Source of the DNA: a virus | Taxonomy: Duplodnaviria; Heunggongvirae; Uroviricota; Caudoviricetes | Direction: 5' to 3' (one strand) | DNA length: 63,014 nt | IMG/VR virus record: IMGVR_UViG_3300045988_147415 | In this document: piece after piece, positions 12,471 to 53,116 of the stretch | How positions within the stretch are numbered: position 1 is the stretch's first letter | Layout of the letters: every line of letters begins with the position of its first letter | Translations under genes and position numbers: made by a program | Notes under the pieces: generated by a model | Databases searched by the model: none | The model's input: the letters and a program-made list of their open reading frames with translations, nothing else | Told to the model about the DNA's origin: nothing

Positions 12471-13412
12471 TTAACTAACAATCCAGTCCGTAGCAACAAC
12501 ATCCTCTGGAGCTAAATCAATCGCATGGATTTTCCCATCCCGGATGGTGCGCCAGTGCTTTCGTGATCCACCTTCGGGCCATACCCATACACCTTCAGGC
12601 CAGGATGCTCGACGGCATACGATTGCATACCCTGTTTTAATCCTCTCTCTCGCGGTATGCAACGACAGGTTTGCCTTTGGACTTTCAGGTACAGGATGGT
12701 GAATGGCCTGAAACAGCCCCATTTTGGGGTGATACCAGCGTTTATTACGTGGTTCTGCCTCCGACATCACCTGCTTAAAGGCTTTCCGGAAGGGGGCCAG
12801 GGCCACAATGGAGCGTCGCGCAAGCAAACCATCTGGAGTTAAAAACTCATGCGTATCGGTGGGAATCCGGAAAGCGTTGACCAGGTTGCGACATTTGGCT
12901 TCAGTCAGGCCACATTTCGCCGCCAGCTGGCGGTAGCCAATGTAGCCTTCCGGAATATTGCCTTTCTTGATTTGCTCGACGGTTTCAGCGACTTCGGACA
13001 CTTGTGCCGATACTTCGGCTACCTGGGCATTAACGGCGTTGATCCGGCGTTCATGCTCAAGATGCATTTGCGCCATTTCAGCCAGGATTTCGGCTTTTGA
13101 TTTTAACTGTACCCGGGCATTCTCCAGTTCGCGCCAGCGGTCCACCAGCCGGGCGGTAAATTCGGGAGAAAGCTGTGCGACGACAATGATACTGTCACGC
13201 TTGCCTTGTTCGCCTTCAAAGATGTAAGCCTTGGAAAATCGACGAGGGCCAACTGATTGTTTATTTTCAATTTCCTCAATTTGAGGAAATTGAATGACAC
13301 CACCTTTAGTTAATACTTCAATGGTACGCTTCACATTATCATGACGCTTACCTACCAGTTCCGCGATCTCAATACTGGTCATTGTCGCTTTTTGAGAGAT
13401 GGACAGATTCAT
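12471..13412 (-). CDS. ant: phage antirepressor (N-terminal Rha-type domain, C-terminal Ant domain), immI-like copy 1
   Basis: TSIEIAELVGKRHDNVKR Rha-type N-terminus; 313 aa; paralog of the 51842..52549 gene; preceded by an icd-like ORF as in P1 immI. Confidence 0.75.
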   Translation of the reverse strand: MNLSISQKATMTSIEIAELVGKRHDNVKRTIEVLTKGGVIQFPQIEEIENKQSVGPRRFSKAYIFEGEQGKRDSIIVVAQLSPEFTARLVDRWRELENARVQLKSKAEILAEMAQMHLEHERRINAVNAQVAEVSAQVSEVAETVEQIKKGNIPEGYIGYRQLAAKCGLTEAKCRNLVNAFRIPTDTHEFLTPDGLLARRSIVALAPFRKAFKQVMSEAEPRNKRWYHPKMGLFQAIHHPVPESPKANLSLHTARERIKTGYAIVCRRASWPEGVWVWPEGGSRKHWRTIRDGKIHAIDLAPEDVVATDWIVS

Positions 13413-13627
13413 CAGTGCACCTCCACGCAGTTCATCGGCAGATTCCAGTAATTGAGGATCTCCATCGCATCAAGAGTGAAGCGAGCAGCAAAAATGCAGG
13501 GTTCTTCGGGAAGGTATGAGCGCGCTTCTGCTTCGGTAGCAGCCATGACGCAGATATAGAGGTGTTTTTGGCAGGAATAGAAACGCCAGATAAATTCAGA
13601 ATGAGTTGGGGTAGGGGTAGTAGCCAT
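13412..13627 (-). CDS. icd: Icd-like small protein (host cell division inhibitor-like), immI copy 1
   Basis: 71 aa; EFIWRF...ATE.EARS motif shared with the paralog at 52549..52773; AAGGAGG RBS; translationally coupled to ant. Confidence 0.5.
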   Translation of the reverse strand: MATTPTPTHSEFIWRFYSCQKHLYICVMAATEAEARSYLPEEPCIFAARFTLDAMEILNYWNLPMNCVEVH

Positions 13628-13689
13628 AATGGCAGCCTCCTTTTGCTAATTTAAGGAGCTACCGCGTGAGGTTCCAATCTCAATGGCGG

Positions 13690-13790
13690 TAGCACTGACT
13701 GGGTTGGAACTACCGGCGCAAAAGGGAACCGGCCTGCCTTTCGGCAGCCCAGCCAGCACTACCATTGATCTCTGAGCTAAACGCTACGTA
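13690..13790 (-). ncRNA. candidate c4-like antisense regulatory RNA (tRNA-like features), immI copy 1
   Basis: Minus-strand transcript carries GUUCCAAC complementary to GAUUGGAACC sites both upstream and about 42 nt before the icd start; a UAGCUCAG...GGUAG D-arm-like segment suggests RNase P-type processing; boundaries approximate. Confidence 0.3.
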
Positions 13791-13811: not shown

Positions 13812-13835
13812 CAAAAAAAGACGCTTTCGGCGTCT
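13812..13835 (-). terminator. Rho-independent terminator upstream of the c4-like region
   Basis: Hairpin AGACGC-TTTCG-GCGTCT followed on the minus strand by UUUUUU. Confidence 0.5.
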
Positions 13836-13940
13836 GTGTCGCCTTTTGCATTATCCGGGGTTCCAATCCCGGCACCCGTTTTTCTAAGGTGCCGTAGAAA
13901 TATACCCCACGATAATGCCAGGGCGCAACAGTCAGTATTT

Positions 13941-38220: not shown

Positions 38221-38296
38221 TGGTGGCCCCTACCGGATTTGAACCGGTGACCGTGCGATTATGAGTCGCCAGCTCTAACCACTGAGCTAAAGGGCC
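38221..38296 (-). tRNA. tRNA-Ile (anticodon CAU, ileX-like; Met cannot be excluded)
   Basis: 76-nt cloverleaf GGCCCTTTAGCTCAGTGGTTAGAGC...GGCGACTCATAATCGC...GGTTCAAATCC...GGGGCCACCA, closely resembling E. coli ileX. Confidence 0.8.
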
Positions 38297-38433
38297 AGAT
38301 TACTGTTAATTCCGCTTACGCTTTTTGCCAGAACCGCGTAAGGCTTTTGCCGCTTGCTCGGCCCCATATGCAACCACCAGCAAAAATAAAAATGTCCAAC
38401 CAGGGTTCTTATCGGCAAACGCCCAAAAATTCA

Positions 38434-38667
38434 TCACTTACAGCCACCTTGCATTTCCTTGGATAATTCATTGATTTTAGTGCTCAATAAGTAATCAAAG
38501 TAAAGATAAAACACAAAAGTAACGATAGTGCTTAAAGTGTCTGAAATTGCGTATTTCAGCTCAGGAAGCATGACAAAGCAGACAAATAGCGGAAGAAATA
38601 ACTGCACTATGCACAGGCTCTTCTTCCACAACCATCTATATCTGAAGTCTGACAACAAAAACTCCAT
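38434..38667 (-). CDS. possible small membrane protein inside the tRNA cluster
   Basis: AT-rich ORF with two hydrophobic helices; start ambiguous and RBS weak. Confidence 0.3.
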   Translation of the reverse strand: MEFLLSDFRYRWLWKKSLCIVQLFLPLFVCFVMLPELKYAISDTLSTIVTFVFYLYFDYLLSTKINELSKEMQGGCK

Positions 38668-38799
38668 TGCTTGAAACTTTATTAGGTTGCGGTGCCTGGT
38701 GCCTCCAGGTGACGTTAACCAGTTAACAATTAACGCCGGGATGTTTGACTTAACCACTAAGGAGGATTGTTTTAACTGTTCCGCGTGCGCTTAGCCGCA

Positions 38800-38920
38800 T
38801 TCACCGCAATGGTAAGAGCACTTGGCTGGCTGGGCGGCGATGACGCCTGTACGCATTTGGTGATCCGGTTCTGCTTCCGGCATTCGCTTAATTAGCCAAA
38901 TACTCTTAACGTTGCACTGG
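38800..38920. repeat. hairpin trailer element, copy 1 (immediately 3' of tRNA-Ser)
   Basis: Conserved TCACCGCAATGGTAAGAGCACTTGG paired with CCAAATACTCTTAACGTTGCACTGG about 70 nt away. Confidence 0.4.
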
Positions 38921-39004
38921 CGGAGAGTAATGGAATCGAACCATCATCGCTTGCGCAATGGGACGGTTTTCAAGACCGCTTGAGCACCATGCTCCCTACT
39001 CTCC
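38918..39004 (-). tRNA. tRNA-Ser (anticodon UGA), long variable arm
   Basis: 87 nt; acceptor GGAGAGT/ACTCTCC, anticodon loop CTTGAAA, T-loop TTCGATT, CCA encoded. Confidence 0.75.
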
Positions 39005-39129
39005 AGTGATTGTGGCGACCGGTGCTGATCTCCGGCTTGCGGTTATTTCAGACTCTCACGGGCGTTTAATTGCCCCGCCGAACAGCTCTTTTCCGCAATA
39101 GCTGCAATGTCTTTCGCGCATCAGCCTGC

Positions 39130-39240
39130 GCATTCACCACAATGTTGAGAACACTGGTTGTCACGCTGCAACGCAACATTTATTCGTAGATTGGGATATG
39201 ACCCCGTTACGCCGGTGTTCTCAACGTTGTAGTGCCGGTT
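39130..39240. repeat. hairpin trailer element, copy 2, with a duplicated fragment of the tRNA-Thr 3' end
   Basis: CACAATGTTGAGAACAC ... GTGTTCTCAACGTTGTAG 17-bp inverted repeat followed by GTGCCGGTTACGG. Confidence 0.4.
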
Positions 39241-39366
39241 ACGGTTCCGGCCAGGCCTCTTCCTCAACGGGGTGTTCTCCATACGGACTACCGTTTATTG
39301 GTCGTTCCTGCGGTTTATGTTGTGAAGCCAGATGCTTATCTTCTGGTTGCTTCTAGGAGCTGCACT

Positions 39367-39452
39367 TCATCACAACGGTAAGAGCATTTATGGCTCGCAT
39401 CGCGGGAAAAAGCCCACGGTAGAGAGTCGAACTCTACAAATGCTCTTACCTG
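39367..39452. repeat. hairpin trailer element, copy 3 (immediately 3' of tRNA-Thr)
   Basis: GGTAAGAGCATTT ... AAATGCTCTTACC 13-bp inverted repeat enclosing two internal hairpins; no valid cloverleaf on either strand. Confidence 0.4.
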
Positions 39453-39458
39453 TTGTGT

Positions 39459-39534
39459 TGGTGCCGGTTAACGGGATCGAACCGCTGACCATTCGCTTAC
39501 AAAGCGACTGCTCTACCAACTGAGCTAAACCGGC
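39459..39534 (-). tRNA. tRNA-Thr (anticodon UGU)
   Basis: 76 nt; acceptor GCCGGTT/AACCGGC, D-arm GCTCAGTTGGTAGAGC, anticodon loop TTTGTAA, T-loop TTCGATC, CCA encoded. Confidence 0.8.
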
Positions 39535-39538
39535 AATT

Positions 39539-39625
39539 TGGTGGGGAGTGATGGAGTCGAACCACCCGAGTCGCAATGACAGTAGATTTACAGTCTACCC
39601 CGCTACCCCTACGGACTAACTCCCC
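39539..39625 (-). tRNA. tRNA-Tyr (anticodon GUA), long variable arm
   Basis: 87 nt; anticodon stem-loop GTAGACTGTAAATCTAC as in E. coli tRNA-Tyr; acceptor GGGGAGT/ACTCCCC; CCA encoded. Confidence 0.7.
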
Positions 39626-39630
39626 TAAAT

Positions 39631-39707
39631 TGGCGATGGTGGGTGGATTCGAACCACCGACCGACAGCTTAGAAGGCTGCTGCTCTATCCTACTGAGCTA
39701 CACCATC
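39631..39707 (-). tRNA. tRNA-Arg (anticodon UCU, reads rare AGA)
   Basis: 77 nt; acceptor GATGGTG/CACCATC, anticodon loop CTTCTAA, T-loop TTCGAAT, CCA encoded. Confidence 0.8.
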
Positions 39708-51126: not shown

Positions 51127-51612
51127 ATGGCAAACATTGAACCTCGCTGGCTAATTGAAGCCCGTAAGCACATTGGCCTGACTGAAATAAAAGGCGCTAA
51201 ACACAACCCTGAAATCGTTCAGTTCTGGCGCGACATCAAGCGCGGCGGAATTAAAGACGATGAAACGCCGTGGTGCGCAGCATTTGTCGGTGCAATGCTG
51301 GAACGTGTAGGCATCCGCTCAACAAGATTTGAGTCGGCAAAATCCTATCTGGATTGGGGCGAGAAATTAGATACACCGGCATACGGATGTATCGTTGTAT
51401 TTACCCGCGTAGGCGGTGGGCACGTAGGCTTCGTTGTCGGACGCCGCGCCAATGGCGATCTGCTTGTCCTGGGTGGGAACCAGGGGGATGCGGTTAATAT
51501 TCGCGCATTCCCAACATCAAGAGTGTCTGGCTATCGCTGGCCTGCTGGCGAACCACGCAATACCGCTCTGTTACCAGTCGGAGACGCAGCAACCTCAACT
51601 AATGAGGCATGA
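51127..51612 (+). CDS. TIGR02594-family protein (CHAP/NlpC-P60-like putative peptidoglycan peptidase)
   Basis: Conserved WCAAFV...GCIVVF...GGGHVGFVVG pattern (Cys/His dyad). Confidence 0.5.
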   Translation: MANIEPRWLIEARKHIGLTEIKGAKHNPEIVQFWRDIKRGGIKDDETPWCAAFVGAMLERVGIRSTRFESAKSYLDWGEKLDTPAYGCIVVFTRVGGGHVGFVVGRRANGDLLVLGGNQGDAVNIRAFPTSRVSGYRWPAGEPRNTALLPVGDAATSTNEA

Positions 51613-51637
51613 AAAAAGCCCCGGCCAGGCCGGGGCA
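51611..51637 (-). terminator. Rho-independent terminator after the split antirepressor gene
   Basis: GCCCCGGCC-AGG-CCGGGGC followed on the minus strand by UUUUUU. Confidence 0.5.
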
Positions 51638-51644
51638 TCACGCT

Positions 51645-51845
51645 TCAAGTCACGATCCAATCATTACCGACTATATCAGCCGTCGATAAATCAACTTCCC
51701 GGATCTGGAGTCCATTAATACAAAACCATCCGGTAGTAGAGTAATTATCAGGCCAGGCCCATACACCAACACTCCATGCTTTACGGCGGCACACTTCAGC
51801 CTGTCCTTCCCTGATTTTTTTTACCGCCTGCATGATGTCCATCAC
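51645..51845 (-). CDS. antirepressor C-terminal domain encoded as a separate ORF (immI-like copy 2)
   Basis: 66 aa aligning with the last 60 residues of the intact antirepressor (...VCRRKAW..GVWAWP...DWIVT); start overlaps the upstream stop (ATGA) in a different frame. Confidence 0.5.
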   Translation of the reverse strand: MMDIMQAVKKIREGQAEVCRRKAWSVGVWAWPDNYSTTGWFCINGLQIREVDLSTADIVGNDWIVT

Positions 51846-52549
51846 TCACCTCCCCAACCGATCACCTGGAATTGCCCCATTTTGGGGTGATACCAGCGTT
51901 TTCCTCGGTGTTCAGCCTCCGACATCATCCGGTTAAAAGCATTCATGAAGGGAGATAAGGCCACGATGGAACGACGCGACAATACCCCCTCTGGAGTTAA
52001 AAACTCATGTGTATCGGTGGGAATCCGGTAAGCGTTGACAAGGTTGCGGCATTTGGCTTCGGTCAGGCCGCATTTTGCCGCCAGCTGGCGGTATCCAATG
52101 TAACCATCTGGCATGTTGCCCTTCTTGATTTGCTCGACGGTTTCTACCACCTGGCTAACCTTTGACTCAACAACATGAAGCCGCTTTTGCTGCTGAACTG
52201 CATTTGCAGCCATTGCGGCGATCATCTCTATTTCGGTCAACGGCTGGCGTGCTTGTTCTTCCAGTTCGCGCCAGCGGTCCACCAGCCGGGCGGTGAATTC
52301 GGGAGAGAGCTGCGCAACGACAATAATGCTGTCTCGTTTGCCTTGCTCGCCTTCGAAGACGTAAGCCTCGACACTACGGCGTAGTCCTAAGTTATTGATT
52401 TTTTCGAAAACCTGCAATGCAGGAAGTTGAATAACTCCAGATTTAGCCAGGCGCTCTATTGATATTTTTACGTTATCTGGACGACTTCCCACCAGCTCCG
52501 CGATCTCAATGCTGGTCATTGATGGCTTTTCAAGAATGCAGATATCCAT
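51842..52549 (-). CDS. ant: antirepressor N-terminal Rha-type portion (immI-like copy 2; gene split relative to copy 1)
   Basis: TSIEIAELVGSRPDNVK Rha N-terminus; high similarity to 12471..13412 over about 230 aa, then terminates early. Confidence 0.65.
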   Translation of the reverse strand: MDICILEKPSMTSIEIAELVGSRPDNVKISIERLAKSGVIQLPALQVFEKINNLGLRRSVEAYVFEGEQGKRDSIIVVAQLSPEFTARLVDRWRELEEQARQPLTEIEMIAAMAANAVQQQKRLHVVESKVSQVVETVEQIKKGNMPDGYIGYRQLAAKCGLTEAKCRNLVNAYRIPTDTHEFLTPEGVLSRRSIVALSPFMNAFNRMMSEAEHRGKRWYHPKMGQFQVIGWGGE

Positions 52550-52773
52550 CAGTGTGCCTCCGCAATGCCGGGATTGGTAATATTGCGATACCAGGGATTA
52601 GTGTTTGGTTGTGGGGAAGTAGAGAAACGACCAGTAAGAACACCATGCTGATCAGGGATCAGAGAACGGGCTTCTTTTTCGGTTGCGGCAATTGCGAAGT
52701 GATCGCAGTGTTTTTGCAGGGAGTGGAAACGCCAGATGAATTCTGGACGTGAGCAAGGATTGGCATTAACCAT
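52549..52773 (-). CDS. icd: Icd-like small protein, immI copy 2
   Basis: 74 aa; paralog of 13412..13627 (PEFIWRFHSLQKH...ATEKEARS); GAGG RBS. Confidence 0.5.
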   Translation of the reverse strand: MVNANPCSRPEFIWRFHSLQKHCDHFAIAATEKEARSLIPDQHGVLTGRFSTSPQPNTNPWYRNITNPGIAEAH

Positions 52774-52829
52774 AGTTACGGCCTCACTAACAGGTTTAAC
52801 AACCTGCTACCCGCTGTCAAACAGGTGGC

Positions 52830-52920
52830 AGGACGTGACAGGGTTGACAGACTGGCGTTAGTGAAACCAGCAGGCCGAAGCCTCCCCATCACGCCCCACC
52901 ATAATTCGGGCGTAACGCGG
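52830..52920 (-). ncRNA. candidate c4-like antisense regulatory RNA, immI copy 2
   Basis: CUGUCAAC element complementary to UUGACAGC sites located about 41 nt before the icd start and again about 170 nt upstream; same geometry as copy 1 with a different sequence; boundaries approximate. Confidence 0.3.
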
Positions 52921-53116
52921 TTTACGGACACAAAAATACCGCAATATCGGAAATCTGCGGTTGTCCGCACTAACATTCAGGCTGTCAAACCTGGTCGCAG
53001 AATTTGCTACGACGGCATGAATATAAGCCTGAAAACATGGAAGATCAACTAAAAATTTCAGCAATGGATGACTTCAGTCGATGATGCAGATCATACATTC
53101 CGATTTAGAAACAGCA

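Follow-up and report, generated by a model that had tools for sequence, protein, structure and literature searches.

Why does one of two related genes in the same genome form a single open reading frame (ORF), and the other two ORFs in different frames? The question is raised by a stretch of viral DNA of 63,014 nucleotides (nt), the IMG/VR record IMGVR_UViG_3300045988_147415, which was analysed over its whole length and is called the window here. The window is a plasmid-prophage of the phage D6 type and contains two P1-like immI operons. A first-pass annotation had described the two Rha-family genes of these operons as copies of one antirepressor gene. As it stated, copy 1 is a single ORF of 313 amino acids; in copy 2 the Rha ORF ends at 51842, and the C-terminal part, which includes the conserved DWIV(S/T), is encoded in another frame by a separate ORF whose start overlaps the upstream stop. 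The description of copy 2 as one antirepressor gene split in two overlooks what matters most, namely that the C-terminal piece forms a Tad2-like (DUF2829) domain in its own right, found fused, coupled or alone behind the antisense RNA C4. We hold with moderate confidence that the small ORF of copy 2 is an independent, C4-gated and coupled gene, the product of which is probably a ligand sponge or anti-defence protein. The features on which the argument turns are the following.

12471..13412, minus strand: copy 1, a fused Rha-family protein, single ORF of 313 amino acids
51842..52549, minus strand: copy 2, Rha-family putative antirepressor of 235 amino acids (D6 orf18), ending ...QVIGWGGE-TGA
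51645..51842, minus strand: small gene of copy 2, 65 amino acids plus stop (D6 orf17), predicted free-standing Tad2-like (DUF2829-fold) protein
51840..51844, minus strand: TGATG stop/start overlap, with the Rha TGA at 51844-51842 and the small-ORF ATG at 51842-51840
51846..51853, minus strand: Shine-Dalgarno (SD) sequence GGAGGTGA of the small ORF, an 8-nt consensus match within the last Rha codons
51815..51822, minus strand: A8 homopolymer 18 nt into the small ORF (codons V-K-K-I), a mutational hot spot

The junction of the Rha gene and the small gene

The longest reading of the small ORF, 51645..51845, opens mechanically at a GTG. These were the limits given in the first-pass annotation, and they are correct as a mechanical reading, but translation is likely to start at the ATG (51842-51840), from which a protein of 65 amino acids (MDIMQAVKKIREGQ...GNDWIVT) is read. 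The A at 51842 belongs both to this ATG and to the Rha TGA; with respect to the Rha gene, the small ORF is thus read in the -1/+2 frame. The junction stretch of copy 2, GGTTGGGGAGGTGAGTGATGGACATCATG (GWGGE-stop / MDIM), contains the SD sequence, which stands 3 nt before the ATG, with its GGAGG core 6 nt before it. The pattern GGAGG-N3-7-TGATG is found seven times in the window against 0.77 expected (about ninefold), a count reached in none of 100 shuffles. Five of the seven sites sit at the stop of a long ORF and the start of the next, including the icd/ant junctions of both copies and the Rha/small-ORF junction, which uses the same stop/start device.

The conservation of this junction was examined by comparing the icd-to-orf17 segments of 29 loci: the window, six database loci and 22 IMG/VR contigs. 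L007 (pSa1423-160k), with frame breaks throughout, was left out. The length to the junction, 1129 nt, the TGATG overlap and the GGAGG core are identical in all 29. The icd, Rha and small ORFs are all intact in 27 of the loci, which represent 23 distinct haplotypes; the exceptions are L034, in which A8 has become A7, and L026, which failed the three-ORF check with its 65-amino-acid ORF open. According to tblastn, about 109 plasmid records contain the 65-amino-acid ORF uninterrupted, with an amino acid identity of 89-100%, and these records come from E. coli, Salmonella, Shigella and E. marmotae. When 50,697 phage records were searched by tblastn with the small ORF and with its stand-alone relative P0006, D6 was the only hit, and a word-indexed homology search with the 65-amino-acid ORF alone returned near-identical proteins only. 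The A8 run is kept in 28 of the 29 loci; the A7 of L034 loses the ATG frame, and the run is also altered in protein P0007. It could be a site of slippage or phase variation, or a hot spot of sequencing errors.

The whole copy-2 locus is 95% identical to Escherichia phage D6 (megablast), and 110 plasmid records span at least 80% of it at 90-99.9% identity. In D6 (MF356679, NC_050154), orf19 (Icd-like), orf18 (anti-repressor, 'similar to HK97 Roi') and orf17 (hypothetical, 65 amino acids) abut, and the gene order is that of the copy-2 locus: repL - icd - ant - orf17 - (peptidoglycan hydrolase, opposite strand) - darB. The small protein is 100% identical to D6 orf17. In RefSeq, the icd-like gene, Rha (Ant) and the hypothetical 65-amino-acid protein are three genes in plasmids of E. 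coli, E. marmotae, Salmonella and Shigella. The arrangement is no artefact: it is conserved, and with exactly the same phase. Of the explanations offered by the first-pass annotation, that of two deliberately separate polypeptides is supported by the invariance of the junction in 29 of 29 loci, the intact ORF in the plasmid records, the strong SD sequence and the position within an operon.

Translational coupling of the small ORF to the Rha gene, also proposed in that annotation, is an inference from the TGATG overlap, as is that of icd to Rha. The SD sequence of the small ORF is unpaired in the predicted mRNA fold, and the RNA around the junction has a minimum free energy of -26.6 kcal/mol, compared with -28.7 on average for shuffles (z = +0.67). 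Coupling enforced by an mRNA structure that occludes the SD sequence was considered and rejected, as no such structure is present at either junction and neither folds better than shuffles. Direct initiation of the small ORF is therefore possible besides reinitiation.

A Tad2-like module in C4-controlled operons

The 65 residues of the small protein align end to end and free of gaps with residues 249-313 of copy 1 (nt 12474-12668) at 40% identity. CRR, a W, GVW-WP and the C-terminal DWIV(S/T) are shared by both. In copy 1 this Tad2-like domain is joined to the Rha part via a Pro-rich linker of 16 codons, HHPVPESPKANLSLHT, opposite which the nucleotide alignment places an unrelated stretch of copy 2 that is 16 nt shorter. 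The separation in copy 2 coincides exactly with the beginning of helix 1 of the Tad2-like domain. A nucleotide alignment of both copies had been proposed as a way to find a 1-nt lesion; it contains none, and the linker has been replaced. At the nucleotide level the copies are diverged, mosaic paralogues. Near-identical blocks (alignment columns ~440-550 and ~680-840) alternate with strongly diverged ones, which suggests gene conversion between the two immI operons of one genome.

The Tad2 fold is used by phages to soak up bacterial immune signals. The assignment of this fold to the small protein, which is based on profiles and a structural model, is solid. The small ORF matches PF11195, 'Thoeris anti-defense 2-like', over profile positions 1-72 of 73 (15.1 bits, E 0.034). 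With a profile made from the two window sequences, only seven proteins were found among 1.84 billion representatives, including P0008 (E 7.5e-4) and P0005 (E 2e-10). Against PF11195 these two score 37.4 bits, which passes the threshold of 25, and 23.9 bits, which nearly does, and hhalign compares the window pair with P0008 at 96.6% probability. An AlphaFold2 model of the small protein, computed from a nine-sequence alignment, has a predicted local distance difference test score of 89.3 and the topology helix 3-11, four strands, helix 54-58 and strand 62-64; helix alpha1, an antiparallel beta-sheet and a short C-terminal helix, which make up the Tad2 fold, are all present in it. The three best Foldseek matches in the PDB are all Tad2 structures, and the best matches in BFVD are Tad2-like/DUF2829 proteins of 65-226 amino acids. 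NCBIfam gave no match for the small ORF or the copy-1 domain. The ligand contacts of SPO1 Tad2 are W25, N26, W73, D79, T78, S76 and H71 (bioRxiv 10.1101/2023.05.01.538930), of which the small protein retains W23 (=W25), S53 (=S76) and D56 (=D79). Tad2 relatives bind other ligands, as ModTad2 does His-ADPR (bioRxiv 10.1101/2024.01.03.573942).

Among the phage protein families, the small ORF belongs to phrog_7385, a family of stand-alone 65-amino-acid proteins (E 1.7e-49), which also matches residues 252-312 of copy 1 (E 1e-13). Copy 1 is matched over its full length by phrog_63, at the C-terminal end of which the Tad2-like part falls. The fused architecture is abundant and intact, with more than 100 protein clusters of 301-314 amino acids, on none of which PF11195 is annotated.

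The domain is found on its own as well. P0005 (96 amino acids) and P0006 (68 amino acids) are 31-40% identical to the small ORF, and their genes immediately follow an a1b1 element and a C4 gene homologous to those of the window; a terminator comes next, and neither icd nor a Rha gene lies between. These loci (L010, 3752-4291, and L011, 3746-4207) are on Raoultella-type plasmid-like contigs of about 88-90 kilobases, and the architecture of C4 followed by the Tad2-like gene alone is rare, with about seven contigs and two protein clusters. No further loci of this kind were found in scans of PLSDB, IMG/VR, and genome, viral and metagenome contigs. Synteny of L010 and L011 with the copy-2 locus of D6 was ruled out, the neighbouring genes being unrelated. 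Three architectures can accordingly be listed: C4, icd and a Rha gene fused to the Tad2-like domain (copy 1); C4, icd and a Rha gene followed by a separate Tad2-like gene (copy 2); and C4 with the Tad2-like gene alone (L010, L011). The autonomous domain is found by itself under C4 as well, and copies 1 and 2 therefore represent the same two modules in a fused and an unfused state.

The remaining elements of the two operons are these.

53020..53048, minus strand: candidate sigma-70-like promoter, TTGATC-17-TATATT, from a consensus scan only, just upstream of a1b1 and of presumed role
52974..53026, minus strand: a1/b1 target element of the C4 RNA (Rfam RF03163, 54.4 bits, gathering threshold 46.7, E 5e-11)
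52821..52906, minus strand: gene of the C4 antisense RNA, P1/P7 immI type (RF01695, 68.8 bits, gathering threshold 45, full length 1-87)
52549..52773, minus strand: icd-like gene of 74 amino acids (ORF and annotation), whose TGA overlaps the Rha ATG (GGAGGCACACTGATG) and is preceded by GGAGG
51612..51636, minus strand: intrinsic terminator GCCCCGGCC-TGG-CCGGGGC + T6, an 8-bp all-G+C hairpin 9 nt past the small-ORF stop
13682-13769, minus strand: copy-1 C4 RNA (RF01695, 76.7 bits)
13412-13627, minus strand: copy-1 icd-like gene, joined to the fused gene by a GGAGGTGCACTGATG overlap

In P1, the C4 RNA blocks translation of icd, and expression of ant depends on icd translation. Copy 2 has the elements of a P1-type immI operon, with C4 and a1/b1 upstream and an icd-like ORF that overlaps the antirepressor start. 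The 74-amino-acid product matches phrog_1426 (E 6.5e-39), and D6 and RefSeq name it 'host cell division inhibitor Icd-like'. The transcription unit controlled by C4 includes the small ORF as its last cistron before the terminator, and the small ORF would thus come under the same C4 switch. The same terminator hairpin follows the fused copy-1 gene (alignment columns ~1207-1230). In the Rfam scan, a1b1 (RF03163) was matched in the copy-2 leader only, with no copy-1 match. The P1 C1-operator consensus (ATTGCTCTAATAAATTT, up to 3 mismatches) was not found in the window. An isrK-like Hfq-binding RNA (RF01394, 62.5 bits) lies upstream of the copy-1 C4, at 13814-13892 on the minus strand. Elsewhere in the window, four tRNA genes are clustered at 38224-39707, also on the minus strand (Rfam tRNA, 41.9-72.1 bits).

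The 235-amino-acid Rha protein consists of an N-terminal Rha/winged helix-turn-helix module, a coiled coil and a conserved middle domain. It matches phrog_63, 'anti-repressor Ant' (E 1.9e-47), and, in Pfam, HTH_24 with 29.8 bits and Phage_pRha with 21.9 bits, the latter below its cut-off. Residues 1-70 (52340-52549, minus strand), the winged helix-turn-helix module, are hypervariable and mosaic among D6-like elements, with 76 nonsynonymous states in 70 codons, and are 72% identical to the Roi N-domain of Stx phages (VT2-Sakai), which suggests frequent exchange with lambdoid prophages. That the 235-amino-acid protein is a full-length Roi, and copy 1 a Roi with an extra domain, was ruled out, as only the N-terminal ~100 amino acids are Roi-like.

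The fused gene itself is broken in some relatives. In five of 12 IMG/VR relatives copy 1 is frameshifted (L042, L044, L045 and L046, ~2330-2698; L043, ~2153-2698), four times by +1 nt at the C-run in ...GCCCCCTTC... (Ala-Pro-Phe, around residue 205), in two haplotypes, and once by a 2-nt deletion. ORFs of 81-98 amino acids with the Tad2-like domain are called as a result (P0009, P0010, P0012, P0013). These frameshifts may be real and recurrent, or may stem from errors in sequencing a homopolymer. In an E. coli IncY, P1-type plasmid (NZ_CP010154; L009, 2447-2698), an ORF of 83 amino acids that comprises the copy-1 linker and the Tad2-like domain, annotated as 'transcriptional regulator', is a truncated relic of the fused gene; it adjoins a tyrosine recombinase and is near IS26.

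Selection and the weighing of explanations

Selection was assessed by counting codon states over unique haplotypes, which is a crude count with no tree-based model. The numbers of synonymous and nonsynonymous states and the resulting ratios are as follows.

icd: 27 synonymous, 4 nonsynonymous, ratio 0.04
Rha residues 71-235: 72 synonymous, 23 nonsynonymous, ratio 0.09
Rha residues 1-70 (mosaic): 48 synonymous, 76 nonsynonymous, ratio 0.45
split small ORF: 11 synonymous, 24 nonsynonymous, ratio 0.59
copy-1 middle domain: 39 synonymous, 10 nonsynonymous, ratio 0.08
copy-1 fused Tad2-like domain: 22 synonymous, 7 nonsynonymous, ratio 0.10

Rha residues 71-235 are under strong purifying selection. 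Purifying selection also acts on the fused domain, which indicates that it is functional. The split ORF differs from Rha residues 71-235 with a Fisher p of 8e-6. Its total divergence is 35 changes over 192 sites, about one third of the synonymous divergence of its neighbours (0.53-0.64 synonymous changes per synonymous site), and the core of the small protein, W23, W28, W30, P31, D56, D61 and W62, is invariant. The low total divergence, the invariant Trp, Pro and Asp residues of the core and the near-universally open ORF argue against pure drift. The pocket of SPO1 Tad2 is formed by loops beta1-beta2 and beta3-beta4, strand beta4, loop beta4-alpha3 and helix alpha3 (bioRxiv 10.1101/2023.05.01.538930). 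Of the 18 variable sites of the small ORF, 10 are in these elements, which account for 22 of 64 positions (one-sided p = 0.03). This enrichment, together with the fast evolution of the split copy, fits either a diversifying surface, as in an arms race, or relaxed constraint there after separation.

The reading that we favour is that copy 2 is a C4-gated operon of three cistrons that would be translated one after the other: icd, the putative antirepressor of the Rha family and a free-standing Tad2-like protein. The small protein would be made, through termination-reinitiation or direct initiation, at the times when icd and Rha are translated. These would be entry into a naive cell and induction, when C4 is limiting; once lysogeny is established, the gene would be silent. 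On the model of Tad2 proteins, its product may be a small oligomeric ligand sponge. The likeliest ligand would be a nucleotide-derived immune signal, as in anti-Thoeris-type counter-defence.

A number of results weigh against this reading. The ratio of the split ORF, 0.59, is not significantly below neutral (p = 0.10), and its protein has evolved about six times faster than the fused domain (Fisher p = 5e-4). Frameshifted alleles of the small ORF, although rare, exist (L034, P0003, P0007). The PF11195 scores of the small ORF and the copy-1 domain, 15.1 and 12.3 bits, are below the 25-bit gathering threshold, and searches of PDB sequences with the two- and nine-sequence profiles found nothing significant, the Tad2 entries 8kbi and 8sme appearing at E 0.28-1.1. 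Four of the ligand contacts of SPO1 Tad2 are altered: S24 (=N26), V50 (=W73), A55 (=T78) and R48 (=H71). Finally, the slot behind C4 is normally held by icd-ant, and the domain could equally take part in antirepression.

This last point leads to an alternative that we consider unlikely, namely that the two polypeptides are the subunits of one antirepressor and that the Tad2-fold piece, supplied in trans at about 1:1, serves for example in oligomerisation, repressor binding or ligand sensing. Equimolar synthesis is what TGATG coupling would favour; Tad2 proteins are obligate oligomers, in copy 1 the domain forms one chain with the Rha protein and is strongly conserved, and in L010 and L011 it alone fills the C4 slot that icd-ant holds in P1 and D6, as an effector would. 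For an obligate subunit, however, evolution about six times faster than that of its Rha partner (0.59 against 0.09) is unexpected, stand-alone homologues have no Rha gene nearby, and the closest structural relatives are sponges of small molecules and not repressor binders. A related idea is very unlikely in our estimate: a Tad2-fold domain that binds immune signals might be a recurrent cargo of C4-gated phage-plasmid operons, fused to the antirepressor, coupled to it or in its stead. In the fused and coupled forms it might be a sensor. When the lysogen comes under attack or its defences are triggered, a signal made by a host TIR protein or cyclase (gcADPR, His-ADPR or the like) would then switch on the antirepressor, so that the prophage is induced and escapes a doomed cell. 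The fold might instead have been co-opted as a repressor-binding antirepressor. The decaying pseudogene proposed by the first-pass annotation corresponds to a relaxed remnant, in which an ancestral fused gene was cut at the linker and the downstream piece, still open and perhaps translated, is drifting to loss. The ratio of 0.59, far above those of icd, the Rha gene and the fused domain, the frameshifted alleles (the A7 of L034, P0003 and P0007) and the replacement of the family-invariant R19 in one allele (L035) are in its favour, and it is to this extent that the proposal survives. As an account of the arrangement it is quite unlikely, since a perfect SD sequence and an ATG exactly at the stop are present in all 29 loci, the ORF is intact in about 109 plasmid records and the split is not lineage-specific. 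The divergence of the ORF at one third of its neighbours' synonymous divergence and the retention of the fold core also speak against decay, and true decay in this family looks different, the copy-1 relatives having scattered indels and no new start site.

Two further explanations suggested by the first-pass annotation concern the junction itself and fare worse. A programmed ribosomal frameshift, or transcriptional slippage, that joins both ORFs into a protein of about 300 amino acids would agree with the homology of both to the one continuous copy-1 protein, and the A8 run 18 nt into the small ORF could be cited for it. So could a T/C polymorphism at 51848 (GGT/GGC, synonymous Gly in Rha), which shifts the SD sequence from GGAGGTGA to GGAGGCGA; its C allele opens the frame of the small ORF 22 codons further upstream (L003-5, L030-32, L035). 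Yet the last Rha codons (ATC GGT TGG GGA GGT GAG TGA) contain no X XXY YYZ heptamer, the RNA folds no better than shuffles, and a TGA at 51848-51846, in the frame of the small ORF, directly precedes its start in the window and most haplotypes, in which any upstream -1 shift would therefore terminate. Since the T-to-C change removes this TGA only in some haplotypes, openness of the frame upstream is not conserved; the A8 run lies downstream of both stops and hence cannot join the frames. Frameshifting is hardly credible on these grounds. The chance that a 1-nt indel was introduced in sequencing or assembly of the window is practically nil, as the same junction is found in D6, about 110 independently sequenced plasmids and the 22 IMG/VR contigs, and the two copies differ there by 16 nt in non-homologous sequence.

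Comparison with known systems

A divergent domain of the predicted Tad2/DUF2829 fold has been missed by current annotation in hundreds of phage-plasmids of E. coli and Salmonella. If the small protein is a sponge, it would be the product of a counter-defence gene timed by the superinfection-immunity circuit, on at entry or induction and off in the lysogen, and D6-like plasmids, which are clinically common, would have a candidate anti-Thoeris function. The fused and unfused domains of one genome, which evolve at sharply different rates, are also a handy system for studying the effect of antirepressor fusion on a domain. In full-text literature searches nothing was found that links Tad2 with an antirepressor or describes Tad2 cargo of C4 operons.

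Compared with the known Tad2 proteins (DUF2829/PF11195; SPO1 Tad2, ModTad2, HgmTad2/AcrIIA7), the window sequences are below the Pfam threshold, and the small protein keeps only W25, S76 and D79 of the contacts of SPO1 Tad2 with gcADPR. The genomic context is new: an immunity operon gated by an antisense RNA, in which the domain is either part of a Rha-family putative antirepressor or coupled with one.

The operons resemble the immI operon of P1 and P7 (c4 - icd - ant1/ant2) in C4 and a1b1, in an icd-like gene that overlaps the next gene and in the intrinsic terminator. They differ from it in that there are two per genome, that the 'Ant' is a Rha-family putative antirepressor with a Roi-like N-domain, and that an extra Tad2-like module is present, either fused or as a third coupled cistron. 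The first-pass annotation had pointed to Ant1 and Ant2 of P1 as a parallel for the two products of copy 2. Ant1 and Ant2 are nested, in-frame products of one ORF, whereas the two polypeptides here do not overlap, are read in different frames and share no residues, so that the analogy does not apply.

In D6, the orf17/18/19 locus, with PHROG 7385, is the same locus, and the split is already annotated there as two genes. As public records of D6 and of more than 100 plasmids already show two genes, the split as such is known and unremarkable. It is ordinary in mechanism too, and resembles gene fission and fusion at linkers in bacteria and phages generally, where the break falls between independently folding modules and the linker gives way to a stop, an SD sequence and a start; in the present case both states coexist in one genome. 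The D6 annotation calls orf17 a 'hypothetical protein' and links it neither to the C-terminus of the other Rha copy nor to Tad2/DUF2829. What public annotation lacks is that orf17 and the C-terminus of copy 1 are the same domain, of predicted Tad2/DUF2829 fold, and that this domain is a recurrent cargo of C4-controlled operons.

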